Source of the DNA: Octopus vulgaris
Taxonomy: Eukaryota
Direction of reading: 5' to 3'
Assembly: GCA_951406725.2 (NCBI GenBank)
Contig: OX597815.1
Coordinates: forward strand, 57,846,001-57,910,000
DNA: 64,000 nt
Shown: piece after piece, positions 19,230-64,000 of the stretch
How positions within the stretch are numbered: the first letter of the stretch is position 1
Layout of the letters: each line of letters starts with the position of its first letter
Position numbers and translations under genes: made by a program
Notes under the pieces: generated by a model
What the model was told of the DNA's origin: nothing
What the model saw: the letters and a program-made list of their open reading frames with translations, nothing else
Database searches by the model: none

Positions 19230-19970
19230 CTTGTATTTCTTTGTTGCTAAAACTCCAAAACAGTCCTGTTCAGTCATATCTTAATCCCAATTTGAATATA
19301 TCTTAAAAATTTAAACTTTGTCTATTTTGAGTGCTTTAATGTGGCTGTCCCTCTATTTCATTATACATATGATGATATATACATAGGGGTCCACTCACTT
19401 CTATTTTGCAAAAAACGACACTTGCAAGTTTCCATATTATAAAGCTTTATTTTTCCGTTAATTTGGCAAAATTTCAGAATAAGCATTACCAACTGTGATT
19501 TTTTTTTGTGTAAAACTTTTAAAGCTTCTGTTTTAAACATTCAGGCTTCCAAATTTTTAGCATTGTTTTCCATGTTATTTATAATTTTCAATTTTTTAAT
19601 TGTTCGTTTATGTTTTTTAATATAGGTGTGTGTGATTGTATCAAATCATTTAGTTGCTTGCTTTGCTTTTGTTTAAATCAAGATAGTGTAATACAAGGTT
19701 TGAGTGCAATTTCTAGCAGGTCAAGCAACTACACTGAGGATCCATTGGGAGGTAACATAATCAAAATTATTCTATTAATGATATCAATAATAATAAAAAT
19801 GCTTAATAAAAGTTGCTGGCATCAGGAAGGGCATGCAGTTGTAGAAATCATACTAAAGCAGACAGTAGAGCTTGGTAAAATCTTCTGACTTACCAGCTCC
19901 TGTCAAGCCATTCAACCTATGCCAGTAGGATAAATGGAAATTAAATGATGATGATAATAATTATATATAT

Positions 19971-20125
19971 ATCATCATCATCATCATCATTATCGTTTAA
20001 CGTCTGCTTTCCATGCTAGCATGGGTTGGACGATTTGACTGAGGACTGGCGAACCAGATGGCTGCACCAGGCTCCAATCTTGATCTGGCAGAGTTTCTAC
20101 AGCTGGATGACCTTCCTAATGCCAA
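19971..20125 (-). mobile_element. Short 3'-terminal fragment of the PHD-bearing RTE-like LINE with (ATG)n tail
   Basis: Matches the 3' ends at 37925-38062 and 42585-42687. Confidence 0.8.
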
Positions 20126-20137
20126 CACACACATATA

Positions 20138-21721
20138 TCATCATCATCATCATCATCATTTAGCGTCCGCTTTCCATGCTAGCATGTTCAACTGGGGTCT
20201 GGGAAGCCAGAAGGCTGCACCAGGCCCAGTCTGATCTGGCAATGTTTCTACAGCTGGATGCCCTTCCTAACACCAAACACTCCATGAATGTAGTGGGTGC
20301 TTTTTACGTGCCACCGGCACAGGTGCCAGACGAGGCTGGCAACGGCCACGATTGGATGGTGCTTTTTATGTGCCACCGGCACGGAGGCCAGTCAGGGTGG
20401 CACTGGCAACGGCCACATTCGGATGGTTCTCTTATGTGCCACCAGCACTGGTATCAAAGCTACAATTTCCATTGATGTTGATCGATTTCGATTTTGATTT
20501 TGAGTCTCACTTGCCTCAACAGGTCTTCACAAGTAGAGTTTTGTGTCCCAAGAAGGAAAGGTATGCATAAGTGGACTGGTTACATCCCAGGTTATGGTCT
20601 CACTTGTCCTGCCGGGTCTTCTCACGCACAGCATACTTCCAAAGGTCTCAGTCTCTAGTCATTTCCTCGGTGAGACCTAAAGTTCGAAGGTCATGCTTCA
20701 CCACCTCGTCCCAGGTTTTCCTGGGTCTACCTCTTCCACAGATTCCCTCAGCTGCTAGGGTGTGGCACTTTTTCACACATCTATCTTCATCCATTCTTGC
20801 CACATGACCATACCAGCGCAAACATCTCTCTTGCACACCACAACTGATGCTTCTTAGGTCCAACTTTTCTCTCTGTCGAGTATGAACGTTGACATTACAC
20901 ATCCATTGCAACATACTGGCTTCATTTCTTGCGAGCTTACACATATCCTCAGCAGTCATGGCCCATGTTTCACTGACATGTAGCATGGCTGTTCATACAC
21001 ATGCGTCATACAGTCTGCCTTTTACTCTAAGCGAGATGCCTTTTGTCACTAGCAGAGGTAAGAGCTCTCTGAACTTTGCCCAAGCTATTCTTACTCTAGC
21101 AGTTACACTTTCAACACACCCACCCCTACTACTGACTTGGTCACCTAGGTAACGGAAGCTATCAACTACTTCTAGTTTTTCTCCCTGGAAAGTGGCGGAA
21201 GTTGGTCTCTGCGCATTTTCATAGTTTATTGCTCCTGAGCATCTGCCACATACAAAAACTATCTTCCTAGTTAGCCTTCCTTTGACGTTGCTGCACCTCT
21301 TATGTGTCCATAGCTTACACTTGGTGCATCTTATAGAGTTTCTACCTACACCTTTTCTACAGATCGAGCAGGGTCATCTACCTGAAGGCGTTTGTGACTT
21401 GTCTACCTTCCTACTTATTAGGACTTTGGTTTTAGCTAGGTTGACTCTAAGGCCGTTCAATTCTAATCCTTGCTTCCACACCTGAAACTTCTTCTCCACT
21501 TCTGATAGTGACTCAGCAATTAGAGCAAGGTCATCAGCATAGAGGAGCTCCCAGGGGCATCCTGTCTTGAATTCCTCCGTAATTGCCTGGAGGACTATGG
21601 AGGGGGCTGAGGACTGAACCTTGGTGGACCCCTACCTCTACCCGGAATTCTTCACTGTACTCGTTGCCAACCCTCACCTTACTAGCAGCGTCCCTGTACA
21701 TGGCTCGCACAGCTCTCACTA
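20138..21721 (-). mobile_element. 5'-truncated PHD-bearing RTE-like LINE
   Basis: VGVHQGSVLSP, ELLYADD, C4HC3 finger, SFRYLG, SETW, LRWYGHV; 3' UTR with ~3 repeat modules; (ATG)n tail. Confidence 0.92.
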
Positions 21722-22415
21722 ACAGAAGAAGGAATGGGAGCTTGCTGAAACTTGAGGGATGGCGAATCTCGGAGTTTGATAAACTCTTCGTCAGTCTCTT
21801 GGACAGCTGCAATTTGATGACGGTCGATGCCTGAATCCACATGTATTGCGTTCAGCTGGATTCGGGACAGAGCGTCAGCTGCTACATTGTCTGATCCCTT
21901 GATATGCCGAATATCGGTTGAATATTGGGAGACAAAGTCCAAGTGGCGAAGTTCTCTTGGTGAATGTCGATCCGGTTTGGTACGGAACGCATAAACTAGT
22001 GGTTTATGGTCCGTGTAGATCACGAAATCCAATCCTTCGAGCATGTGATGAAAATGCTTCACTGAAAGGTAGGTTGCCGAGAGTTCATGGCTGAACGTAC
22101 TATATTTGGCTTCAGTGGGTTGCAACCACTTAGAAAAGAAGGATAAGGGTTGCCAAACGCCGTCGACATGTTGTTGCAAAACGCCTCCAACCCCCATGTC
22201 TGATGTGTCCACTAGCAGCGAAAGAGGAGCGCCAGACTTGGGGAAAATGAGCATGGAAGCGTTTGCCAGCATTTCTTTCAGACCGTTGAAAGATGTTAAT
22301 TCTTCCTCGTTCAACGTTATGTCTTCATTTTTCCGAGTCCGGTTGCGAAGAAGTTGCTTTGTTTTCTCTGGTGATGGCAGATGTATTTCCGGTGTCCGTG
22401 CAAGTTACTTCCGGT
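21722..22415 (-). mobile_element. Ty3/gypsy pol fragment (RT-connection and RNase H)
   Basis: ORF 21682-22314: LLVDTSDMGVGGVLQQ, FFSK, YSTFSHEL, IYTDHKPL, HIKGSDNVAADALSR. Confidence 0.92.
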
Positions 22416-34539: not shown

Positions 34540-37500
34540 ATGTTGCTGTCCTCCATCTCACCAGCCCACATCTTCCACACCCTCAGAGTTGGCACACTTA
34601 ACGGCACATTGAAAGGTAAGTCTGGTGAGATTGTTAAGATGCTTGAATGGAGACGTGTAGATTTGTACTGCATACAAGAAGGTGGAGAGGAAGTTCTGCT
34701 AGGTTCCTCACAGGCAAAGAACATAGGTATAAGATTTTCTGGGTAGGGAACACTGATGGGATTGGGGCCGTGGGTATATTCCTTGTGGAGAAATGGATTG
34801 ATAAGGTAATCAAGATAGTCAGAGTCCATGATAGAATACTTAAGTTTAGACTAGTGCTGCAACATGGATTACCAACCATTATTTCAGCTATGCCCCTCAG
34901 CCAGGGCTACCTGATGAACAGAAAGACCAATTTTATGACACCCTCTTGCAAACTACCTTGTCAACGAATGATAGCAACCATCTCTTTGTGGCTGGCGACT
35001 TCATTCAACATCCAGGGAGCTTCCATGGTGTACATGATGGCAACAGATTTGGTTCCTGCAATGAGGAGGGAGCCAGGCTGCTGGAGTTCTCTGATGGAAA
35101 TGATCTTATGATCTGTAATACTAACTTCAGGAAACCTGCCAGTCACCTGTTCACCTACCAGTCTAGTGGGCATACTAGTCAGATTGACTACATTCTTGCC
35201 AAGAAATGGGAAAGATGGCTACCTATAAATGCCAAAACTTTCCCAGGTGAAGAATGCATCTCACAACATAGGTTAGTTAATGACTTCAGGATCAGGGCTA
35301 AATGGCTGCCCAGAAGAATACCAGCATGAAAAAGAAGGGTCTGGAAGCTTAAAGATCCTCCAAATGGACAGAGATTTAGAGACATTATTTGAAGCTCTTG
35401 ATAAAAACGAGGAGGATATATCATCACATAATGTGGATGAAAACTGGAGGTTCCTACAAGACAATATGAGGGTTACTGGCCAGATCTGTGGCTGGTGCAA
35501 AGTCCCCTCTTGATCTAAGGTAACGTGGTGGTGGAACAATATAGTTGACAGAGCCATTAGGGAAAGAAACAGGCATGGAAGGACTGGAAGTGTGGTGTTA
35601 GCAGGGAACTGTACCAGATTGCCAGAAGAGAAGCTAGAAGACAGGATTACTTAGCCAGAGGAAAAGTAGATAAGATTTTCCAGTGTTCTGCATCATGAGG
35701 ACCAGAGACTTGAAGTGCAAGACAGTGTGTTTGTTTGTTTTTGTTTTTGTTTGTTTTTCCAGTTTCAGCTCTTGAGCTGTGGCCATGCTGGGGCACCGCC
35801 ATTGTGGTGAAAGAGTACAGCAGGGATCACCACCCCCTGCGGGAGCCTCGTAGAGCTTTTTTTAGGTGTTTTCGCTCAATAAACACACACAACGCCCGGT
35901 CTGAGAATCGAAACCGCGATCCTGCGACCGCGAGTCCGCTGCCCTAACCACTGTGCCATTGCGCCTCGAGAATCATGATGTCATAGGAGAGAAATAAATT
36001 CACATGGATGATGGCTCACTTGCATTTAATGATGCTGCAAAGAGAGAGACATGGAGATGCCACTATGAAAGGTAGTTAAATGAAGACAATGAATGGGAGA
36101 AAGAGAGTCTGCCAAATGTCAACCCAACAGAGGGACCAGCTATTCGAATTCACAGTACCTTGGTAGATAAAGCAATTAAGGGTATGAAAACAGGGAAAGC
36201 CCCTAACCCATCAGGAATCACTGCTGAGATGCTTAAGATATCTGGCAGTGTAGGCTATAGTCTAGTCTAGTCACCCATATCACCCAGGTGATACATGAAG
36301 GAGTCAAACCCAATGACTGGTGTAGCAGCACCATATTCAACTGCTATAAACGTAAAGGTGACACATTAGATAGAAATAATTACAGAAGTATCAAATTGTT
36401 GGATCAGGTGATTAAAGTTATAGAGAGGGTCATAGCCCAACTAATTAGGGAGAGAGCTTAGACGAGATGCTGTTTCAGTTTGTGCCAAGGAGAAGCACTG
36501 CTGATGCTATATTTCTGGTAAGAGAGCTTTCGTTGACAGGGTCCCCCGATCAATGCGGAATCTAGAGATAGATGAGAGGTTGGTGAGAGCTGTACAAGCC
36601 ATGTACAGGGATGCTGCCAGTAAGGTAAGGGTTGGGAATGAGTACAGTGAAGAATTCTGGGTAGAAGTAGGGGTTCACCTAGGATCAGTCCTCAGTCTCC
36701 TCTTATCATAGTCCTCCAGGCAATAACAGAGGAATTCAAGACAGGATGCCCCTGAGAACTCTTTTATGCTGATGACCTTGCTCTAATAGCTGAGTCACTA
36801 CCAGAACTAAAGAAGAAATTTCAGGTGTGGAAGCAAGGTCTAGGATCGAAGGGCCTTAGAGTGAATCTAACAAAAGCCAATGTCTTAGTAAGTAGGAAGG
36901 TAGACAAATCACAAATCTCTTCAGGTAGATGGCCCTGCTCGAGCTGTAGAAAAGGCGTAGGAAGAATCTTCATAAGATGTACCCGGTGTAAGTAATGGCC
37001 ACAAAGAGGTGCAGCAATATCAAAAGAAGGTTAACTAGGAAGATAGTTTTTGTGTGTGACAGATGTACAGAGGCAATAAACACCAAAGATGTACAGAAAA
37101 CAAATTCCATCACATACCAGGGGAAAAACTAGAAGTAGTTGATGGCTTCTGTTACCTAGTTAACTAAGTCAGTAGTGGAGGTGGATGCTGCTAGAATAAG
37201 AATAGTCTGGACAAAGTTCAGAGAGCTCCTACCTCAGCTGGTAACAAAGGGCCTCTCACTCAGAGTGAAAGGTGGACTGTATGATGCATGTGTGTGAACA
37301 ACCATGCTACATGGCAGTGAAACATGGGCTGTGACTGCTGAGGACATGTTTAGGCTTGAAAGAAATGAAGCTAGTATGCTCTGCTGGATGTGTAATGTCA
37401 GTGTGCATATATGACAGAGTGTAAGCATCCTGAGAGAAAAGTTGGACATAAGAAGCATCAGATGTGGTGTGTTGCATATGGATTAAGATAGCTGTGTGAA

Positions 37501-38062
37501 GAAGTGTCACACCCTAACAGTGGAGGGAACTTGCGGAAGAGGTACACCCAGGAAGACATGGGATGAGCATGACCTTCAAACATTGTGCCTCACAGAGGCA
37601 ATAACAAGCGACCAAGACCTTTGGAGATATGTTGTGCTTGAGAAGACCCAGCAAGCTGCCAGTGCCAGTGTTGCATAACCAGCCCATTTAAAAGCACCCT
37701 TCAATCATCGGGCAATATGCTGTACTTGAGAATCTTGACTGGCACCCATGCCTGTGGCACGTAAAAAGCACCATTTGAGCATGACCAATGCCAGTGTCAC
37801 CTGACTGGTCCTTGTGCCAGTGGCATGTAAAAAGCACCATTCAAGTGTGGTCAATGCCAGTGCTGCCTGACTGGCCCCTGTGCCAAGGACATCTAAAAAG
37901 CACCCACTACACTCTTGGAGTGATTTGCATTAGGAAGCTGTAGAAACCTTGCCAGATCAGATTGGAGCCTGGTGCAATCTCCTGCCTTGTCAATCCTCAG
38001 TCAAGCCATCCAACCCATGCTCGCATGGAAAATGGATGTTAAGCGATGATGATGATGATGAT
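34540..38062 (+). mobile_element. Near full-length, frameshifted PHD-bearing RTE-like LINE in a CRYL1 intron (antisense)
   Basis: AP-endonuclease motifs LRVGTLN, CIQE, AGDF, SQIDYIL, SQHRLV; RT motifs NYRSIKLL, GSVLS, YADD; C4HC3 finger; 3' UTR modules; (ATG)n tail. Confidence 0.93.
35730..35968 (-). mobile_element. tRNA-derived SINE, family 3, nested in the RTE-like LINE
   Basis: GAGGCGCAATGGCACAGTGGTTAGGGCAGCGG..GGTTTCGATTC head; tail GGCGGTGCCCCAGCATGGCCACAG; LINE sequence resumes on both sides. Confidence 0.85.
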
Positions 38063-38065
38063 GCT

Positions 38066-38490
38066 ATGCATGAGAAGACTTGTCAAGCCAAGTGAAATCA
38101 TAGTTGTGGATGTGTCAGTGTCCTGTAAATGGCATCTGTGAATTCATAGCCATGGCCGTTACCAGTGCCATGTAAATGACACCCATGGACCATAGTCATG
38201 GTCATTACTGGTACCATGTAAAGGGTACCCATGAATCGTTGTGATTGTTGCTGGCACCTGTAAATTGTAGTCATGGTCGCTGCTGGTACTATGTAAATAG
38301 CATCCATGTCAGTGGCATGTAAAAGCACTCATTACATTCCTGGAGTGGTTAGCATTAGGAAGAGCATCCAGCCATAAAAACCTTCTCAAATCAGACTGGA
38401 ACCTAGTGCAGCTCTCCAGCTCATCAGCTCCAGTCAAACCATCTAACCCATGTCAGCATGGAGAGTGGGCATTAAATGATGAGATGATAT
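38066..38490 (+). mobile_element. Older, diverged 3' UTR and tail of the same RTE-like family
   Basis: Degenerate CATGTAAA repeats, GGAGTGGTTAGCATTAGGAAGAGCATCCAGC, AACCCATGTCAGCATGGA, ATGATGA tail. Confidence 0.7.
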
Positions 38491-40249: not shown

Positions 40250-41670
40250 CATCATTGGCTTTATCTCATATCTGAGAATTTAGTTTCTTCTTTGCTGAAT
40301 GTTTCCCTTATGGTGATGGCATTGATGACTATGCAGACCAATTCTTGATAAGAAAAGTCAACGATGTTGGTGGAGGACAAGGTTGATTTTGTTAAGCCTT
40401 TCTCGCCTGTCATTTGATTTCTTCCTTTTCTCTTCTGGTGACTTTGAAGTTTTTGGTTTCAATGGTGATGGAACACTACCACTTGGTATGGTCTTGGTCT
40501 TGTGTTTCAAATGATTTAGGTTCAATTCCAGTGGCTTTCAGTGTTGCTTTGAATTTGTCCATGTATCTTCGAAGAGAGCAACTCTGTGGTCTTTTCTCTG
40601 AAGTGAGCTCACTAAATATGACTTGACATGGGAAGCTTGACTTTTCCATTCTTACTACATGTCCTGACCATTGAAGACAGTGTTTCATTATCAGTGATTC
40701 AATAACTTTGACTGTTGGCACTTTCCAAGACTTTGTTGTTGGTAACATAGTGTTCCCCATTTGATGCTCAAGTTTGAATGAAACTTTTGTTGGCAAAAGC
40801 ATTCTTATTTTTGGATGTCGCAATGATATTCAGGTTTTGCAGCCATAGAGTAAGGTTGAAATGACAACAGCATCATAGACTATAATTTTTGTTAAGTTAA
40901 GATCTTTGAGGATTAACTTGATTAGCTTTCCAAATGCACCATTAGCAGCTCCAATTCTGTTTCCACATCCTTTTCTGAGATGCACCTGTTTGATAAACGA
41001 CTGGTAAGATGGTATTTGGGACTGATTCAGCAAGGACCTTGGATTTCTTGATGTTTGCTGTAAGGCTAAAGTGATGGTAGGCCATAGCAAAGTTGTTCAC
41101 AGACTGTTTGAGGAGTTCTTTTGAATGACAGAAGGCAGCATTGTCATCAGCATATTGAAGTTCTGAGATGTGCTGCATGTGTGTTAAATGCTTAGACTGA
41201 ACTCTACTAAGCTTGAAAAGTCCTCCATCTTATTGATATCTAATGTCAACTCCTGGATTGTTTGGAAGTTCATGAAGCATTGCAGCCAGATACTAGGAAA
41301 ATAGTGTAGGTGCCAAGACACATTCTTGCTTTAGTCCACACATGATTGGAAATTCATCTGACAGCATGTTTTGGTGAAATACATGCCCAAACATATATCG
41401 TGCACTGCTTCAACCAAAGTGATAAAGTGATCAGGATATCCAAATCAATGCAGAACCCTTTACATAGCAGCTCTTGAAACCCTATCAAAGGCCTTTTCTA
41501 AGTCAAAGAAAACAAAGAAAATGGGCTTATGTTGTTCCCTGCTTTTCTCCCAGAGTTGCCTTGCACAGAAAATCACATTGATATTCTGGTAGGATCTTTT
41601 TGATGATTTAGAAGAATCCTAACAAAGACCTTTCCAGTGATGGAGAGTAACACTATTCCTCTATAGTTCC
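40250..41670 (-). mobile_element. RTE-clade LINE, RT and C-terminal part (5' part displaced to 48543-49040)
   Basis: NYRGIVLLSITGKV, FFDLEKAFD, CLGTYT/LAPT region, ELQYADD, STLLYGCKT, LQWSGHVVRM. Confidence 0.88.
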
Positions 41671-41826
41671 GAGGAGTAGCTGTGTGGTAAGTAGCTTGCT
41701 TACCAACCACATGGTTCCAGGTTCAATCCACTGCATGGCACCTTGGACAGATGTCTTCTACTATAGCCGCAGGCCAACCAAAGCTTTGTGAGTGGATTTG
41801 GTAGACAGAAACCAAAAGAAGCCCGC
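41671..41826 (+). mobile_element. 5' half of a family 1 SINE; a matching 3' tail lies at ~48455-48542
   Basis: Matches 23318-23470 up to the internal microsatellite. Confidence 0.85.
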
Positions 41827-42683
41827 TGTGTGACTGCTGAGGACATGCGTAAGCTCGCAAGGAATGAAGCCAGTATGCTCCGATGGATGTGTAATGTCAG
41901 TGTGCATACTCGTCAGAGTGTAAGTGCCTTGAGAGAAAAGTTGGACCTAAGAAGCATCAGATGTGGTATGCAAGAGAGATGACTGCGCTGGTATGGTCAT
42001 GTGGTGAGAATGGATGAAGATAGCTGTGTGAAAAAGTGTCACACCCTAGCAGTTGAGGGAACCTATGGAAGAGGTAGATCCAGGAAGACCTGGGACGAGG
42101 TGGTGAAGCATGACCTTCGAACATTGGGCCTCACCGAGGCAATGACTAGTGACCGGGACCTTTGGAAATATGCTGTGCTTGAGAAGATTCAGCAAACTCA
42201 AGTGAGACCATAACCTTGTGACCTACGCTAGAGGTGTAACCAGCCCACTTATGCGTACCTTTCCTTCATTGGACACTAAACTCTGCTTGTGAAAACCTAT
42301 TGAGGCAAGTGAAATTGAAATCAAATTCTATGACAGCACCGCATGACTGGCATCACTGCTTGTGGAGCGCTAAGAGCACCATCTGAGCATGATCATTGCC
42401 AGGGCTGCTGACTAGCTCCTGTGCTGGTGGCATGTATAAAGCACATTTCAAGCATGATCGTTATCAGCGTTGCCTTACTGGCACATAAAAAACACCATTT
42501 GAGCATGGTCGTTGCTAGTACCGCCTCACTGGCCCTCATTCCAGTGGCACGTAAAAGCAGCCACTACACTCTCGGAGTGGTTGGCATTAGGAAGGGCATC
42601 CAACTGTAGAAACTCTGCCAGTCCTCAGTCAAACAGTCCAACCCGTGCCAGCATGGAAAGCGGACGTCAAACGATGATGATGA

Positions 42684-42687
<4 letters not shown>
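41827..42687 (+). mobile_element. 5'-truncated PHD-family RTE-like LINE (C-terminus, 3' UTR, tail)
   Basis: VTAEDMRKLARNEASMLRW..GRGRSRKTWDEVV; degenerate 3' UTR modules; (ATG)n tail followed by (TA)n. Confidence 0.92.
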
Positions 42688-42730
<43 letters not shown>

Positions 42731-44355: not shown

Positions 44356-46288
44356 TGTTGTTGGCATCCTTTATGTCTCGGAGACAATGGAGTTGCACAT
44401 AAAATAATCTAGTCCGGCTTTTACATTTCATGTCCTAATACATCTTCTGCTGTGGCAATGTAGTCCTATCCTGGACAAACACTCCCTCTGGCAGGTGCCG
44501 CAAATGTAGCGAAGACTTTGCCTGGCTGGTTGACACCTTTTCTTGTCTTTCCATTTCTCCTATCTCTCTATGTCACTCCTTTGTGTTCTCTCTTTTATGG
44601 TACGTCGCCAATCTCCATGGTTGCTGGCAATTGCTTCCCAGTTGGTAATATTAATGTTGCAGGCATTCATGTCCCTTTTGCAAACATCCTTGTATCATAA
44701 GAACAGTCTTCCCACAGACCTAGTGACCCTAGCAAGCTCTCTGTAGAATATGTCTTTGGGGATTCTGCCATCTTGCATACGGCTAACATGCCCAAGCCAT
44801 CTCATACATCTTTGTGTGAGGAGTGCAAACATGCTTGGTATTCCTGCTTGCTTGAGGACATCTTTGTTGGGGACATGATTCTGCCATTTGATGTGAAGGA
44901 TTTTCAGGACGCAGCGCAGGTGAAAGATATTTAGGCGACGCTCTTGGCATGTGTATGGTGTCCAAGTCTCACTTCCATACAGTAGAGTGCTAAGTACACA
45001 TGACTGGTAAATCTTCATTTTTGTGGTCTTGGTCAGCTTATTGTTGCCCCATGCCAGCTTGGAGAGTTAGGCCATCACAGCAGCTGCCTTGCCAATGCAT
45101 ATATTGAGCTCAGCATCAAGGGATAGGTTGTAGGTGACGGTAGAGCCAAGATAGGTAAACTTCTCCACCTCCTGTAGTCTGTGGTCTCCAATATGTATGT
45201 TTGGGATGCTATGTGCTTGCTCAAAACAGTTGATGAGCCTCTGTAGGGCTTCTTCTGTGTGTGATACCAGAGTGGCATCATCAGTAAATAGCATCTCCTT
45301 GATCAGGACGCTTCTGATTTTGGTCTTGGCATGCAGACGCAAGAGATTGAACAGTTTCCCGTCACTTCTACTGTGCAGAAACACTCCATCATCTGATGTC
45401 TCAAAGGCATGTGACACCAGCAGCGAGAAGAAGATGCCAAATAATGTAGGAGCAAGGACACAACCTTGCTTTACCCCGTTTTTTATTTGGAAGGCAGCTG
45501 ATAATGAACCATTGTGCTGTATGGTGCCTTGCATATCATCATGGAAAGATTTGATGATCCTCAGCAGCTTTGGTGGACATCCAATTTTTTGGAGCAGGAT
45601 GAAGAGGCCTTTTCTACTTACCAAGTCAAAGGCTTTTGTCAGATCAATGAAGACCATATATAATGGGATTTTCTGCTCTCTGGACTTCTCCTGAAGTTGG
45701 CGTATGGAGAATATCATGTCAATAGTTGATCTGCTTCTTGTATTGCATCAGAGTCGCATGCTTTGCTTCGATAACTGTTTCCAACTCTGAGAGCCCAGCA
45801 CTGAACCAATCTGGGTTTTGCCTTTCTCTCATGCCGAAAGTATCTATTGATGTGGTATACAAAGCTTCCCTGATATAATTCCACCTACTTTCAGCAGAGG
45901 AGGTTGGGTAGCTACTGAGGGCAACCTTGATAGAAACAGCAAAACATTTTCGCAGTGTAGGGTCCGAGGTCCGGGCAGTGTTAATGCGTGGTCGGCCCAT
46001 TTTCTTGGAGTGATGGACTTTTTTAGGCAGAATCCTCACCCTGCTTCTTATTAGTGAATGATCTGTGTCACAATCCGTGCTGTGGTAACTATGGGTCAGT
46101 TGAACAGAATTCAGTAAAGATCTTCGTGTAATGATGAGATCCAGCTGATGCCAGTAGTGAGATCTTGGATGTCTCCAAGATGCCTTGTGGGATGTCTAGT
46201 TGGCAAAGAATGCGTTGGTGATGCACAGGTTATGGTATGTGCAAAATTAAAGTAGTCTCTGACCATTGTCACTCATGTTGCCAATACC
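44356..46288 (-). mobile_element. RTE-clade LINE with an internal deletion
   Basis: EN end (WHQLDLII, HSTDCDTDHSL); RT motifs RQLQEK, FIDLTKAFD, GVKQGCVLAPTLF, MLFTDD; LLYGSETW, RWLGHVSRM; sequence jumps at ~45735. Confidence 0.93.
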
Positions 46289-52228: not shown

Positions 52229-53426
52229 GAGGCTTGATTAATTTGTAAATAAAGTTTCTAAATAATGATGAATAAAACTGGACCTTATATACCTATACAC
52301 CCTAGAATAACTTTGAAAGACCATAAGGAAAATTTTTACTCTAACCCTAAGTTTAGATTAATTTGTCCATGTAAATCAGATTTAGGTAAATTAAGTAAAA
52401 TTATTCTGGATAAATACATGAATAGATTAAATGAATTTAATTACCTTAAACTTTGGAACAGTACTAATAATACTTTAAAATGGTTTCATAATACTAAAGA
52501 TAAAAATAAATATAAATTCATTCAAATAGATATAGATAATTATTATTCTTCTATTAATGAGATTGTACTCAATAAAGCCCTAATATATGCAATGAATAAG
52601 GTAGGAATGACCTCTGATGAAGTTAATGTTATTAAAATGGCTAGGAAATCGTTAATTAGATATAATAATAAATTATGGGCTAGGAAGGATACTAGAAACT
52701 ATTTTGATATACCTATGGGGGCACCTGATTCTGCACAGGCCACTGATTTAGTAGGTATTTATTATCAGAACTTCAATTAGAACATTTAAATTTGGAGAGT
52801 GGTTTATATAGGGATGACCTTTTATTACTTACTAGAGATTGTACAAATAGAAAATTAGAATTATATAAAAAGAAACTTTATAATTTCTTTAAAAGATATG
52901 GTTTAAGTAATACTATTTATAATGAGAACTATGTTAATTATTTAGATGTTAATTTTAATGTAATAATGGGTAAAACCCATCCATTCCATAAAATTAATGA
53001 AAATCTCAGATATATTAATACTTATAGTAATCATCCACCTTCTGTTAAAAAATTGTTAATAAATAATGTAGGTAAAAGAATATCATTACTTTCTTATGAT
53101 TTAGAGATTTTTAATAAACATGCACCTTATTATAATAAAGCCTTGTATGAGGCAGGATACAATAATAATATTAAATATTAAACGTAATTATAATTTGAAG
53201 GAGAATAATTTAAATGATTTTTATAATGATAAACCTAATTATCTGAATTATGATAAATTTTATTTAGGTATCTATCGTCTTAACAATAATAGGTATTTTG
53301 ATGATATAAATCATACATTTAATATTGAAATAAAAAATAAAAATAGAAATAATAAAAATAAAAATAAAAATAAGATAAAATTTAATTCAATTAATGAAGA
53401 TAATAAATTTAATAATATTACAAAAA

Positions 53427-53485
<59 letters not shown>

Positions 53486-54983
53486 TAATAATAATAGATA
53501 AGAATTTGTATTATCATAATTTAAACACTTTATATAGGGTCCACTTCAAATAAAATTAAATCAAGAATATCTCAACATATGTATTCTTTTAGGAATAAAA
53601 ATCTAATACATTCAACAGGTCTCAGTAAATATATTTGGGACCTTAAATCTAGATCTATTAAATATAAATTAACTTGGGAGATTATTTGTAGGGCTAAATC
53701 ATATTGTATAGGGAGTAATTATTGTTCACTATATAATAACGAATTTAAAGAAATATTATTTAATAACAATTGTGTTGGTAAACTAATTGGAGGAACGTAA
53801 AATTAAATGTAAACATAAATTAAATTACCTATATAATAGGTTTAGCTAATAAATAAATGATTATACAAATTTATTAAGATATATTAATTATAGTAATATA
53901 AATTAATTTAAATATAATATATATATTTATTTTACTTATTATTTAGGCTTTAAATTTATAGTAAATAGTCATTTAAAATTAAATGCTAACATAAATTTAT
54001 TTACCTATATAATACGTTAACTTATTTTTCAGTATGAATAAAACCTTATTTCTTTTTATGTTATTTATTTCTTGTAGATATAATTTAATAGTATTAGAGT
54101 ATAATTTACTATATTATTATATGTTATATTAATATATTTGAACAATATTAGACTTAAATATTTCATAATACATAAATGATTATATATAATTTTATTAAGA
54201 CCTATTAGTTATAGTAATATAAATTAATTTAATATTAGATGTATATTGTACGTAATAATCATTTGAAACTTAATTTATAGTAAAATGTCTTTATAGTAAA
54301 ATGTCATTTGTTATTCTATTTTTCTTATTGTTCTTTAATTCATGAAGCTTAAATATTTTTGTCTTTTTCATTAATAAATAGACCTATTTTTTTACATTTA
54401 AAATTCAGTTATATTATTTTCATTGACAAGCTAAGTAACATTTTTTGTTTATCAATATTATTTGGCTTTTGAATTGCATTGGGTTTGATTATTATTATCA
54501 TTACTATTATTATTATTATTATTATTATTGTAATTATTATTGCTGTTGAACATTAATTTTATATATAGTTTCTTGATAGTTATTAGTGATGATAGTTATT
54601 AGTTATGATATCTATTTATTTAGTATGCTTTATTATTATTTTCATAATGTGATTTAATGTATTAAATATAATTTAATTTGAGAATTAGTTTTGTAAGACA
54701 ATACGTTATTTAATAATTAGGTGGTATATTTATTATGTAGTACTACATTTAAGTAAATTAGTTTTATATTAATTGATATTTTGGTCAACTATACTAATGA
54801 GTGAAATATTAAATCTATAGATACTACATATATATTAATATAGTTAGAATATTTGACCCATTTCCTATTTTTGATTCCAGTATTTATGGCTTGTACTAGC
54901 ATTCTGTGTATTACTTAACATTAAGGTTTTTAGTATAAATTGCTTAATGGGTATAAGAGTTTATATCAATTTTTATTAAATTA

Positions 54984-56622: not shown

Positions 56623-56744
56623 CAAAATAAGAAAATGGAGAAATACACCTTAATCAATAATCAACTACCAGACAATACCCATTCACATAATTTATTAACC
56701 AACTACATATGAACATCAAGGTCAAACATAATAGTACAGAACGA

Positions 56745-58434
56745 ATACATCTAATAGAAGGCTAGATTTACTGAAAAAACGACTGCATAAATTTTTTAAG
56801 AGTTTTGGTTTATCTATAATTATTGAAAATGAAAATTACTCTGTCAATTATTTAGAAGTTAATTGCAACCTTACTAATGGGATACATGAACCTTATATTA
56901 AACCTAATTCTAACTTAGTATATATAAACTACTCTAGCAATCACCCCCTCAAATTAAAAAGTCACTATTGCGTAGCATTAGTCAGAGAATCTCTTATCTA
57001 TCCTCAAATTGGGACATATTTAATAAGCATAGTGAAAGATATAACACTGCATTGCATAAGGCAGGCTACACGAGTAAAATTAAGTATATACCTAATAATA
57101 ATCTTTTGAATCAAGGTGGATCTACTACTACAAACATAAATGAATTTCGAGTGGACAACAACAACTTTAGGGTAAAGAACAATAGGCTATATAAAAGTGT
57201 GTATGGCAATAATACTAGTATTGGTACTAATGGAGCTGTTGATCTTAGCTTAAATAACTTAGCACACAATATTGAGATTAATAATATTAATAATAATATG
57301 AATAATAATAAAGATATTATCTACGATAATAGAAAAACTTATTTACACCATAATAACAATACCAATTTTAACAATGATTTTAGTCATAATCTTGGTAATA
57401 TTAATCACAGAGGGCATAGGGGTTGGAAGAGGAACAGAGTTTTTGCTAATAATAAGAATTTGATAGGTAACCCACATAGTGATAATGATGCACTATGGCT
57501 GATAATCCCATATGCAATGCAAATTAAAATGGATATAGTTAGAATGATCCATAGTTTATTGTACAAGCACTTTGAGAAGGGTAAGAATAAATATTGTCAA
57601 ATAATTAATAATAAAACTATCAGAATAGGGTATAGCCTTACTCACAATTTAGCCACCATCATTTCCTTCTTTAATAATAGAAAATTAGACCGCTTCTATA
57701 GTGATAGAAGGATAAACTTGGGTAGCAGAAATGTGCCTCTCCATAACTTGAGAGGTAATAAATCTAATAGTGCGAACGTGATTAACCCTCACATTGGTTA
57801 TAATAGTACTATCTCTGTAGCGACAAATAATAATTTGGTTGATGATACTGCTATTCGTAGTAGTAGTCCTAATGATTTGAATATTACTAATAATGTTAAA
57901 CATGGACTCCCGTTGAATATAGGATTAAGTAGTGGGAATGAGGTTAACATTATAAACAATAATAGGGATGCAGTGAATTGTAGCAAGGTTAAATTTCCTC
58001 AATCAGATAGCATCTGCAATTGCAGAAACAAAAACAAATGTGTGTTCAATAATGAATGCCTGAGGAAAGGGGTGGTTTATCAATGCATTGTGAATACACA
58101 ACATGATAGTAGGGTGTATATTGGTGCGACTAAAAATAGTATGAAACAACGACTGAACTATCATAGATACACTTTCAAAAATAAAAATAGGATGAATTCT
58201 ACGGGGTTAAGTACTTATATTTGGGAACTTAAGAGCAAGAATATAGATTTTGACTTAAATTGGAAAATACTCACTTTGGCACCAGTATATAATAATAGAA
58301 ATAAAAAATGCTCTTTATGCATCAATGAAATCTTCTTTATCATCAAAGCTAGCTTACCCATTATTAATAATATTAACGAGCGAAATTTTTTTTACCTTCA
58401 CAGACTAGCGTATACTTTCTCTAGATTTAAATAG
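56745..58434 (+). mobile_element. Penelope-like element 3' half: RT thumb, Asn-rich linker, GIY-YIG endonuclease
   Basis: YIKPNSNLVYINYSSNHP; 488-aa ORF with CNCRNKNKC..C, GVVY..VYIGAT, QRLNYH, STGLSTYIWELK, CSLCINE. Confidence 0.92.
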
Positions 58435-59620: not shown

Positions 59621-59793
59621 CTTCTATGTTTGGTTATGTATGAATGTATGTATACGCAAAGATGTGGGCAGGCTTGTATATCTGTACTTCTGAATGTGTA
59701 TGTGGGTATATCTACATATGTTCATGTGTATATTTATATATATATATAGGTTCACTGGTGGATATGTGTGTATATGTTTTTATATATATAGGT

Positions 59794-61133
59794 ATCATCA
59801 TCATCATCATCATCATCATCATCGTTTAACGTCCATTCTCCATGCTAGCATGGGTTGGACGGTTCGACCAGGGATCTGGGAAGCCAGAAGGCTGCACCAG
59901 GCTCCAGTCTTATCTGGCAATGTTTCTACAGCTGGATGCCCTTCCTAACGCCAACCACTCCGTGAGTGTAGTGGGTGCTTTTTACGTGCCACCTGCACAG
60001 GTGCCAGGCGAGGCTGGCAGCGGCCATGGTCAGATTGGTGTATTTTATGTGCCACCGGCACAGAAGCCAGTCGAGGCGGTACTAGCATCGGCCACGAGTC
60101 GGATAGTGCTTTTTACGTACCACCAAACCAGGGATCCTGGCTGGTTCAATTCGATTTCGATTTCGATTTCGCTTGCCCCAACATGTCTTCACAAGCAAAG
60201 GGGGTTGGCATGGGTGCCTGTCGTACAGTCGGATTGGAGTATTTTACGTGCCACCGGCACGGAAGCCAGTGGAGGCGGCGCTGGCATCAGCCACGAGTCG
60301 GATAGTGCTTTTTACGTACCACCAGACCAGGGATCCTGGCTGGTTCAATTCGGTTTCTATTTTGATTTTGCTTGCCCCAACATGTCTTTGCAAGCAAAGG
60401 GGGTTGGCATGGGTGCCTGTCGTCGGATGAGGTTCTATATCGACTTCGCTTGCCTCAACAGGTCTTTGTGTCCAAGGGAGGAAAGGCATTCATAAGTGGG
60501 CTGGGCTCACTTGTCCTGCCTGGTCTTCTCACGTACAGAATATTTCCAAAGGTCTCGGTCGCTGGTCATTTCCTCAGTGAGGCCTAAAATTTGAAGGTCG
60601 TGCTTCACCACCTCGTCCCAGGTTTTCCTGGGTCTACCTCTTCCACGGGTTCCCTCAACTGCTAGGGAGTAGCACTTTCTCACACACCTATCTTCATCCA
60701 TTCTCGCCACATGACCATACCAGCGCAATCGTCTCTCTTGCACACCACAACTGATGCTTCTTAGGTACAACATTTCTCTCAAGGTGCTAACGCTCTGTCG
60801 AGTATGTACACTGACATTACACATCCATCGGAGCATACTGGCTTCATTCCTCATGAGCTTACGCATGTCCTCAGCAGTCACGGCCCATGTTTCACTGCCA
60901 TGTAGCATGGCTGTTCGTACACACGCATCATACAGTCTGCCTTTTACTCTGAGCGAGAGGCCTTTAGTCACCAGCAGAGGTAAGAGCTCCCTAAACTTTG
61001 CCCAGGCTATTCTTATTCTAGCAGTTACACTTTCAGCGCACCCACCCCCACTACTGACTTGGTCACCTAGATAACGGAAGCTATCAACTACTTCTAGTTT
61101 TTCCCCCTGGAAAGTGACGGAAGTTGTTTTCTG
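59794..61133 (-). mobile_element. 5'-truncated, young PHD-family RTE-like LINE
   Basis: Intact C-terminal ORF to 60507 (SFRYLG, HGSETW, RLRWYGHV); 3' UTR with modules and a ~199-bp duplication; (ATG)n tail. Confidence 0.95.
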
Positions 61134-61860
61134 TATATATATGAGTATGTATGTGTATACAAATGTTTGCGGATATAATTTGGTGTAGTTCTCCACACCT
61201 GTATATATATGGTTTTTGTATGTATATTGTAATTCTATCTATATGTATATCTGCGTATGTTTATATGTATATTCATGCTTTTATGGGTGAATTTGCGTTA
61301 GTGTATATAAGTAATATATGTGTGTGCGGGTGTGTGTATGTGTATGTGTGTGTATGCTGATGCAGTTTTCCCATTGCCTGTGCATGTTTATTGGCAGTGT
61401 GTGTGTGGGTGTACATGTGGAGGTGTATTCATTTTTGTTATGCGGTGTGTTTGTGTGTGGGGGGATGTATGCGTGTGTCTGTTGGTTTGGTGTACATTTG
61501 GGTGCTTCGGTGTATGTATGCATGTGTGTATGTATGTGTTGATCTTGGATTTGTAGGTTTGTCTGTTGCTTGTATGTGTATTTGTGGGGGTTTTTAGGTG
61601 TAGGGGTACATATGTATGAGTCTTGGTGCAAATGTTATTGTCGGTGTGTGCCTTAAATAAGAGTTGAAATAAAAATAAAAATAGGCATATAAATACCGAT
61701 AGATATAGATTACATAATTTTTGATGGGTTGTGTTTCGTGTTTGAGGGTACGTGGTTGTGGTGGTAAATGGCTCCGGTTTTTTGTTTGGTGGCTTTATGT
61801 TTGTTTTGTGTATGGATGTGTGGTGTGCTGCGTTGGGGTTTGTACAGAGTTGGGGTTTGA
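61134..61860. repeat. TG/TA-rich low-complexity tract continuing 58720-59790
   Basis: Same composition on both sides of the LINE insertion. Confidence 0.8.
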
Positions 61861-62013
61861 GTGGGCTCACACTTGAAAGTGTTGATATCTGGACGGTTTC
61901 GTAGTATTCTGGTTGTTTACGATATAATCGGAGTAAATTTTAATTATTTATCTTATGCAAATAACGTACTTCTTCTTTACACTAGTCATGGTAATTCTGT
62001 GTGTTGAGTTTAT

Positions 62014-64000
62014 ATCATCATCATCATCATCATCGTTTAGCGTCCGTTTTCCATGCTAGCATGGGTTGGACGGGTCAACTGGGGTCTGTGAAGCTGGAAG
62101 GCTTCGTCAGGCCCAGTCAGATCTGGCAGTGTTTCTACGGCTGGATGCCCTTCCTAACGCCAACCACTCCGCGAGTGTAGTGGGTGTTTTTTACGTGCCA
62201 CCTGCACAGGTGCCAGACAGAGCTGGTGAACGGCCACGAACGGATGGTGCTTTTACGTGTCACCGGCTCGGGGCCAGGCGATGCTGGCAACGGACACGAA
62301 CGGATGGTGCTTTTACGTGCCACCGACATGGGGCCAGACAGAGCTGGCAACCGGCCACGAACGGACGGTGCTTTTACGTGTCACCGGCACGGGGGCCAGC
62401 CGAGGCTGGCAACGGATGCGAATGGATGGTGCTTTTACGTGCCACCGACACGGTTGCCAGACAGAGCTGGCAAACGGCCACGAGCGGACGGTGCTTTTAC
62501 GTGTCACCGGCACGGGGGCCAGCCGAGGCTGGCAACGGACGCGAACAGATGGTGCTTTTACGTGCCACCGACACGGTTGCCAGACAGAGCTGGCAAACGG
62601 CCACGAGCGGACGGTGCTTTTACGTGTCACCGGCACGGGGCCCAGGCGAGGCTGGCAACGGACGCGAACAGATGGTGCTTTTACGTGCCACCGACACGGT
62701 TGCCAGACAGAGCTGGCAAACGGCCACGAGCGGACGGTGCTTTTACGTGTCACCGGCACGGGGGCCAGCCGAGGCTGGCAACGGACACGGACGGATGGTG
62801 CTTTTACGTGCCACCGACACGGTTGCCAGACAGAGCTGGCAAACGGCCACGAGCGGACGGTGCTTTTACGTGTCACCGGCACGGGGGCCAGCCGAGGCTG
62901 GCAACGGACACGGACGGATGGTGCTTTTACGTGCCACCGACACGGGGCCAGACAGAGCTGGCAAATGGCCACGAACGGATGGTGCTTTTACGTGCCACCG
63001 ACACGGGGCCAGACAGAGCTGGCCCACGGCCACGAACGGACGGTGCTTTTACGTGTCACCGGCACGGGGCCAGGCGAGGCTGGCAACGAACACGAACGGA
63101 TGGTGCTTTTACATGACACCGACACGGGGCCAGGCAGAGCTGGCAAACGGCCATGAGCGAATGGTGCTTTTACGTATCACCGGCACGGGTGCCAGACGAG
63201 GCTGACAGCGGACACGAACAGATGGGTCACTTAACCCCTGCTTTCTGATATATGATTTGATTTTGATTGTTCTCACTGGTCTTGCCGGGTCTTCTCACGC
63301 ACAGCATACTTCCATAGGTCTCGGTCTCTGGTCATTTCCTTGGTGAGACCTAGAGTTCAAAGGTCGTGCTTCACCACCTCGACCCAGGTTTTCCTGGGTC
63401 TACCTCTTCCACAGGTCCCCTCAACTGCCAGGGTGTGGCACTTTTTCACACACCTATCTTCATCCATTCTCACCACATGACCATACCAGCGCAATCGTCT
63501 CTCTTGCACACAACATCTGATTCCTCTTAGGTCCAACTTTTCTCTCAAGGTACTTACACTCTGTCGACTATGAACACTGACATTACACATCCAACGGAGC
63601 ATACTAGCTTCATTTCTCGCGAGCTTACGCATGTCCTCAGCAGTCACGGCCCATATTTCACTGCCATGTAGCATGGCTGTTCATACACATGCATCATACA
63701 GTCTGCCTTTTACTCTGAGCGAGAGGCCTTTAGTCACCAACAGAGGTAAGAGCTCCCTAAACTTTGCCCAGGCTATTCTTACTCTAGCCGTTACACTTTC
63801 AGCACACCCACCCCCACTACTGACTTGGTCACCAAGATAACGGAAGCTATCAACCACTTCTAGTTTTTCCCCCTGGAAAGTGACGGAAGTTGTTTTCTGC
63901 AGATTTTCAGAGGTTAATGCTCCCGAGCATCTGCCACATACAAAAACCATCTTCCTAGTTAGCCTTCCTATGACATTGCTGCACCTCTTATGTGTCCATA
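62014..64000 (-). mobile_element. Young PHD-family RTE-like LINE running off the right edge
   Basis: C-terminal half of the finger (WTHKRC..FVCGRC), SFRYLG, HGSEIW, RLRWYGHV; (ATG)n tail at 62014-62033. Confidence 0.95.
62183..63226 (-). repeat. GC-rich tandem array of 17 units of 60-63 bp (123-bp A/B dimer in the centre) inside the LINE 3' UTR
   Basis: GGTGCTTTTAC core at about 62183, 62246, 62306, 62367, 62428, 62490, 62551, 62613, 62674, 62736, 62797, 62859, 62920, 62981, 63042, 63102 and 63163. Confidence 0.97.

Follow-up and report, generated by a model that had tools for sequence, protein, structure and literature searches.

A tandem array of 17 short modules lies in the 3' untranslated region (UTR) of a dead, probably RTE-type LINE copy of Octopus vulgaris. 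The origin that we place just on the probable side is that a module from a SINE-like cassette, capable of a pseudoknot when alone, was multiplied neutrally into a minisatellite in which the cores of two variants, A and B, pair with each other. The array was found in a stretch of 64,000 nt of contig OX597815.1 which was analysed as a whole and is called the window here. The features are listed in Table 1.

An earlier note on this DNA had claimed 17 modules in a LINE 3' UTR. The array is real: TRF and unit calls give 17 tandem units of 60-63 nt on the minus strand, with TRF periods of 61 (17.0 copies) and 123 (8.4 copies, 91% matches). The GCCAG/CUGGC hairpin and the A-type and B-type pairings match the description given there. 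The two variants account for eight units each, but the last unit is a third type (T), with A and not C in loop 1. The order is A B A B B A B A B A B A B A B A T, i.e. alternating subvariants with a dimer-scale period and no A-A neighbours. The array starts 50 nt past the ORF stop, inside the 3' UTR. It was correctly placed between the stop codon and the (ATG)n tail, but it does not adjoin the tail, as about 150 nt with a conserved motif and a terminal hairpin separate it from (ATG)7. The 17 copies have one or two origins and are not 17 independent cases.

Table 1. Features of the array copy and of the other copies of its LINE family in the window
Feature	Position	Strand	Remarks
(ATG)7 tail	62014..62034	-	
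Terminal hairpin of RTE; its translation RPTHASMENGR* is how related ORFs end	62041..62072	-	Fold z -3.0 for 62010-62130; BLAST E 3e-8 to L097
Stem-bulge-stem motif, conserved; also heads short RTE-tailed elements in other animal DNA; likely RTE 5'-UTR motif	62131..62165	-	
Terminal module, of the third type (loop 1 is A, A run longer); position kept in every family copy of the window	62183..62245	-	
Module array (17): linker, GCCAG/CUGGC hairpin, 15-nt near-palindromic core, UAAAAG, CACC	62183..63223	-	
B-type core, unit 7	62807..62821	-	
A-type core, unit 6; predicted to pair through its A with U of the following B core (inter-unit helix)	62869..62883	-	
Short spacer, stop to array; spacers of other copies longer; mark of the minor subfamily	63224..63272	-	
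LINE ORF 3' end: PHD-finger end and C-terminal region; two in-frame stops; TGA 63273-63275; dead copy	63273..64000	-	Frame 2; relatives with RVT_1, PHD and DUF6451
Second family copy: 3 full and 2 half modules, 199-bp UTR duplication	59794..61133	-	
Third family copy, 3 modules	20134..21700	-	
Old, nearly full-length copy (endonuclease through tail); 37707-37904 holds 3 modules	34585..38067	+	
5'-truncated copy: other ~46-nt tandem unit, one clear module	38068..38490	+	
Truncated copy, 3 modules at 42381-42561	41830..42690	+	

Since the ORF has two internal stops, the LINE copy with the array is dead. Among named relatives, those nearest to the ORF end are proteins of Octopus bimaculoides (89% and 77%, for part of the query), and relative P0020 carries RVT_1, PHD and DUF6451. 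RTE-clade LINEs have an AP endonuclease followed by RT in one ORF; here an Exo_endo_phos_2 match (E 1e-6) lies in the copy at 34.6-38 kb, and the family copies in the window are broken. The ending is of the RTE type, with a short tandem-repeat (ATG)n tail after a terminal stem-loop. We take the RTE clade name from the C-terminal motifs, with the endonuclease, the RT/PHD relatives and the tail beside them, and on these features the LINE is probably RTE-type. RTE-2_OV, as far as the available parts of PMC9115989 describe it, is likewise an RTE-clade LINE of Octopus. By that description it differs in having a C2H2 finger and a microsatellite beginning at the ORF end, whereas the array family combines a PHD finger with a UTR that is structured.

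On public contigs covering 63102-63560, the summed contig depth on the copy-specific spacer is 10^3-10^4 (0.4-2% of the ORF peak) and that on the A-diagnostic site 8-32x the spacer depth, with 71-74% A in 3 of 4 runs; contig depth is no copy number, the RNA label of one run is a guess and the fourth run, of raw reads, gave 3 reads only. These depths at the A-diagnostic site suggest that long A/B arrays likely characterise a minor, multi-copy subfamily.

Searched against the window, a covariance model of 22 units gave 31 matches, of which the 14 outside the array all lie in the 3' UTRs of five other copies, with 1-3 full modules per copy and always in sense orientation. The module characterises this LINE family and is not peculiar to the array copy. 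One module sits directly ahead of the conserved 35-nt motif in each family copy. UTR length varies among the copies from about 360 to 1215 nt and the duplicated stretches differ by copy, being 61-68-nt modules, a 199-bp block or a 46-nt unit; the last is repeated about five times at 38068-38330, before the module of that copy. Tail-only copies are present at 19811-20126. Between the array copy and its neighbour, an 880-bp strand-biased low-complexity insert (61134-62013) interrupts the ORF of the 60-kb copy and borders on the tail of the copy with the array.

The origin of this UTR can be read from the ends of related ORFs. The ending RPTHASMENGR*, which the terminal hairpin encodes, was found in P0011, P0015 and P0016, while P0002 (69% identical) ends ERTRPTHASMEKRT where the window reads EKTRQ. 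The hairpin-type C-terminal motif is present in 8 of 63 proteins with a scorable C-terminus, out of 120. Since related ORFs read straight into the terminal hairpin, this comparison shows all sequence between the ORF end and the terminal hairpin as an insertion. At the RTE ends of L001-L079, the terminal stem has paired variants, CGGCUC/GAGCCG or GGGCCG vs CGGCCU/AGGCCG, followed by UWAAA, and this stem-plus-UWAAA ending is the same as that of the module.

The motif behind the array (62131-62165) matches loci L001-L074 by BLAST with E-values of 6e-4 to 0.03 and also heads short RTE-tailed elements in animal DNA of metagenome loci. It has a small stem, a 4x1 bulge, a 3-bp stem, an AGGGCA loop and UAAAA, has no Rfam match, and is common to the octopus UTR and to the heads of short RTE-tailed elements in L020, L031, L033, L065, L073 and L097. 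In 16 sequences, 93.6% of its pairs are kept and its covariation is 0.273, a value reached in 2/500 shuffles, which related sequences can inflate. By eye it resembles, with the same fold, the RTE5' part of the moth SINE HaSE1, which Kojima annotates in the passages available as tRNA - unknown body - RTE5' - RTE3' (PMC5786205); the motif is absent verbatim from the supplement passages of that paper. An assignment as V (Vhc) domain was ruled out, as the Vhc consensuses printed in the available part of PMC4758252 differ.

HaSE1/HaSE3 and bipartite RTE-derived SINEs have, in the parts of PMC5786205 and PMC3272025 that describe them, the same order as the octopus UTR: body module, RTE 5'-UTR motif, RTE tail and (GAT)n. 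The HaSE1 body given there, CCGUGU-UUCGGAU-GGCACG-UUAAA, is by eye close to the octopus B core (PMC5786205). In contrast with this SINE, the octopus cassette has no tRNA head, is fused behind an ORF and has its module multiplied; its loop is 3 nt shorter, the S2 register differs and the upstream hairpin is absent in HaSE1 as printed. Because the order is that of HaSE1 minus the head and the motifs look alike by eye, it is likely that the module came with a captured SINE-like cassette. This origin rests on layout and by-eye likeness, since the model and pattern searches were empty: the covariance model had 0 matches in 91 foreign loci, and Inv/Nin-type patterns are absent from the window, 98 loci and the viral contigs. 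No free SINE carrying the module, and hence no donor, was found in the foreign loci, the viral contigs or the window, and no tRNA gene in the window. Protein-anchored scans gave 80 metagenome and 11 genome loci and 0 viral ones, with short 3' UTRs in which the module is absent, and exact module patterns occur 0 times in the viral contigs and 0 times in the prokaryote genomes.

Some look-alikes were also inspected. Seven viral matches to a look-alike 17-mer are due to chance, as the hairpin and S2 are absent. L047 (1350-1440, +) and L060 (2200-2284, -) are SINE-like and have a CCAG/CUGG hairpin and, behind it, a look-alike of the pseudoknot in which one S1 pair is swapped; they were rejected as homologues, with nhmmer E-values of 1.5-1.7 only and nothing from the covariance model. 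At 41670-41830 of the window, a SINE-like sequence runs straight into a 5'-truncated LINE ORF fragment, which may be a chimera or a nested insertion. The RTE sequence in L088-L098 is animal sequence in records of prokaryote genomes and so marks host contamination in these assemblies.

The A and B units had been drawn as compact pseudoknots. A descriptor requiring at least 9 pairs and AAA in loop 3, drawn after seeing the unit, is satisfied by 13/17 units (6/8 A, 6/8 B and the terminal unit); u1, u2, u15 and u16 fail. The same descriptor has 26 unrelated matches, mostly AT-rich, on both strands of the window. Dinucleotide shuffles of one unit gave a pseudoknot of at least 9 pairs in 69/3000 cases and one with an AAA loop in 6/3000, so that the fit of a single unit is modestly beyond chance. 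Stem stacking sums are near-equal (A -16.7, B -16.8, terminal -16.2). Four of the 17 units have lost the drawn fold, and the multimer is predicted to pair between units.

Conservation was measured on 11 diverged units of the 22 aligned, after dropping near-duplicate array units and one duplicate. In non-CpG columns, variation per cell is 6.5% in paired vs 21.5% in unpaired columns (permutation p=0.00015), a contrast biased by the fact that units were found and aligned through the conserved block. S2 alone varies 5.2% vs 25.5% (p=0.004) and loop 3 9.5%; the A-rich loop is thus present and conserved, while the loop-1 base varies among C, A, G and U, a freedom open to an unpaired base. In the upstream hairpin, the stem is kept at loop lengths of 5-11 nt. 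Covariation of S1 and S2, which the earlier note proposed as a check, is absent from the module stems of the window's units: a single pair has two-sided change, as do 485/500 shuffles, and stem changes broke pairs 15 times and kept them 11 times. Rfam over 59700-64000 (E<=10) gave 8 matches, all far below gathering and none relevant, and over 8 loci (E<=1) nothing near gathering. From the fit and the conserved stems, the module alone is likely structured as a hairpin plus compact pseudoknot.

As for the likeness to luteoviral frameshift pseudoknots that had been pointed out, the topology stands and the context does not. Pseudoknots of the luteoviral BWYV type have a fixed C in loop 1, a 3-bp S2 and an A-rich loop that forms a minor-groove triplex. 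The module shares their compact H-type topology, 5-bp S1, short loop 1 and A-rich loop 3, but it lies past the stop codon, has an S2 of 4-5 bp and any of C/A/G/U in loop 1, and has no Rfam match. The overlapping ORFs and slippery site of the luteoviral context are absent at the array.

The 15-nt core is a near-palindrome, which was overlooked at first. In the A type, position 11 is changed from G to A and in the B type its partner, position 5, from C to U; on neighbouring units these substitutions make an exact G-C to A-U pair in a predicted 14-bp inter-unit helix. Predicted helix energies are -24.1 (A:B), -20.8 (B:B) and -11.9 (A:A) kcal/mol. Over the whole array, the nested ensemble has about 10 of the 15 core bases in pairs between A and B and about 0 in pairs inside one unit, nested folding being unable to score pseudoknots. 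For units 6-13, a rough estimate gives -140 for four A:B helices vs -105 to -134 for eight pseudoknots, with triples, stacking, Mg and tertiary contacts omitted from the pseudoknot energy. Junctions are fully paired in 11/16 cases, intra-unit 5-bp stems are intact in 7/17 units, and the loop-1 A of terminal units breaks the inter-unit helix. In these models, the inter-unit helix is predicted to be at least as stable as the pseudoknots, and the array to fold otherwise than originally drawn, with A and B cores pairing with each other.

With 9 random substitutions on the dimer, simulation yields the register shift in 1.5%, the inter-unit pair in 3.0% and both together in 0.09% of cases; each is a single event and both patterns were picked post hoc. 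The claim that the A/B changes shift the stem junction while keeping nine pairs holds for the pairings as drawn, but the changes can equally be read as an inter-unit compensatory pair, and the two readings are not mutually exclusive. The case is a clean example of apparent compensation in tandem repeats that is readable two ways, within or between units.

Taken together, the following course of events is proposed. The UTR was inserted between the ORF end and the terminal hairpin which related ORFs read through, possibly from a SINE-like RNA with the same RTE tail, by recombination or a template switch. The module stems appear conserved along master lineages; this points to a structural role in the element RNA, putatively RNP assembly or RT engagement near the tail. 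The UTR duplicates readily, with unit lengths and counts differing across all six copies. In one minor subfamily, an A+B dimer may then have been amplified, and retrotransposition may have spread it. The near-palindrome likely served as template for the complementary A/B substitutions, or these were retained as pairing-preserving, and 17-fold growth likely proceeded by neutral slippage or unequal exchange. The expansion is most simply explained as drift in a duplication-prone UTR, likely a by-product and not a purpose-built row of pseudoknots. Still, the array is more than a plain minisatellite, because its unit is probably structured and foreign to the LINE. The joint simulated chance of 0.09% is hard on pure neutrality, though post hoc.

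The closest systems in kind are SINE-derived satellites with alternating subvariants. As described in the available part of PMC10702118, sSat of squamates is a tandem ~60-nt part of a retroelement body with parent flanks and alternating subvariants amplified as dimers. In the octopus array too, the tandem units come from part of a retroelement body and have parent sequence on both sides; for a SINE parent, the layout and the motif likeness were seen, and no tRNA head. Different from sSat, the array sits in the 3' UTR of an autonomous LINE, likely travels by retrotransposition and has mutually complementary A/B cores; 'secondary structure' has 0 occurrences in that part of the sSat paper. The earlier note was aware of no description of the array, and the literature search found no account of it either, with Dfam and Repbase outside its scope.

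The explanation first offered was that every unit folds independently into a hairpin and H-type pseudoknot and acts as a cis-element (RT recognition, nuclease block or stability), that more copies help, and that A and B differ by a register shift. This is unlikely as a whole. The fit of most units, their equal stacking sums, the rarity of the register shift in simulation and the conservation of S2 and loop 3 beside a free loop 1 would all suit it, and the lower variation of paired columns keeps the structured cis-element part alive. However, covariation is absent, A/B has a single origin, four units lost the fold, the rival helix is at least as stable, and the family spreads with 1-3 modules. 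Since other family copies were inserted with so few, multimerisation is unnecessary for insertion.

It is quite improbable that the row of inter-unit helices is itself the selected structure, forming a dsRNA scaffold (for RT dimers, ADAR or export) with the pseudoknot as the default of unpaired units, i.e. a two-state switch. This would account for the exact A-U compensation, for the greater share of paired junctions than of intact intra-unit stems, for an array without A-A neighbours, and for the last two units of the 20-kb copy, which are also mutually complementary, at CpG-type sites. Yet the compensation is one event with a 3% chance, and template switching, which can yield compensatory changes without selection according to the part of PMC8794818 available, gives the same result. 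The terminal loop-1 A breaks the helix, and alternation is an ordinary outcome of dimer amplification, going by the available part of PMC10702118.

The block may also act as DNA, a palindromic protein-binding site which together with the RTE 5'-UTR motif forms an internal promoter or enhancer, scaling in strength with unit number and launching tail-only elements. We regard this as very unlikely. The conserved block holds an ACGTG word on the plus strand, which we take to be E-box- or hypoxia-element-like, and conservation without covariation suits a sequence motif. Tail-only copies do exist, and for conserved RTE 5' parts Kojima suggests regulator binding in the passages available (PMC5786205). 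Against a DNA-level function, the word is only 5-6 bp long, the upstream hairpin keeps its stem whatever the loop length, and the tail-only copies may be plain 5' truncations. That the unit or dimer is a self-cleaving ribozyme cutting unit-length RNAs is highly improbable: ribozymes are frequent in RTE and tandem retroelements, and some of them need the dimer for activity (PMC6765202, in part), but Rfam to E 10 gave no ribozyme match, known cases lie at 5' ends, a 3' UTR cut would sever the ORF from its tail in cis, and an HDV-like fold tried by hand on the unit and the post-array motif lacks P2 and a pyrimidine L3.

Other mobile elements are present in the window as well. AT-rich ORFs at 52262-53500 and 56735-58434, including a 498-aa frame without Pfam match, are presumably a Penelope-type RT and GIY-YIG endonuclease. 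At 21682-22404 and 44695-46195, a Gypsy-type RNase H fragment and a second, unrelated LINE RT fragment are found.

A bolder and rather unlikely extension concerns the conserved Inv/Nin/Deu SINE domain. Its 5' part, as printed in the available part of PMC4758252, can be drawn by eye as a 4-5-bp stem, a 1-nt loop, a 3-4-bp second stem and an A-rich loop, and in its second part a CGUG/CACG stem precedes UAAAAG, as in the octopus module. The S2 sequence differs, and the octopus module lies behind a LINE ORF, not a tRNA/5S head. By tools, homology to Inv/Nin/Deu was not detected, Nin-type patterns being absent from the sets searched above. According to the part of PMC5804259 available, such conserved SINE domains have not been found in LINEs. 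By eye, the first Inv/Nin stem varies in pairs in the printed consensuses: CGUGU/GCACG in moth, CGUC/GACG in elephant shark, and GUUCU/GGAAC, ACUCU/AGAGU, AGUCU/AGACU and GUCU/AGAC in molluscs. The second stem is nearly invariant and therefore without covariation (PMC4758252, PMC5786205, in part). The 5' part is thus compatible with an H-type pseudoknot, with a first stem that covaries among the consensuses of moth, shark, bivalve and snail. The word 'pseudoknot' has 0 occurrences in the available parts of PMC11481361, PMC5804259 and PMC3272025, and no literature on a pseudoknot in a conserved SINE domain was found among the matches listed. The extension would be that the unit descends from the Inv/Nin/Deu domain, that this domain is an unrecognised pseudoknot, and that the octopus LINE multimerised it as a two-state RNA, with a monomer pseudoknot and an A:B heterodimer helix.

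At minimum, this LINE represents a very abundant family that apparently has not been described, with a duplication-prone and probably captured cassette as its 3' UTR, which is found in a large number of host sequences. What conserved SINE bodies do is called unclear or undemonstrated in the available parts of PMC11481361 and PMC5804259. Should the module be a functional pseudoknot and a relative of the Inv/Nin domain, their role would become testable, with a natural dosage series of 0, 1-3 and 17 modules in one element, and there would be a first structural handle on SINE body domains that have persisted for hundreds of millions of years.
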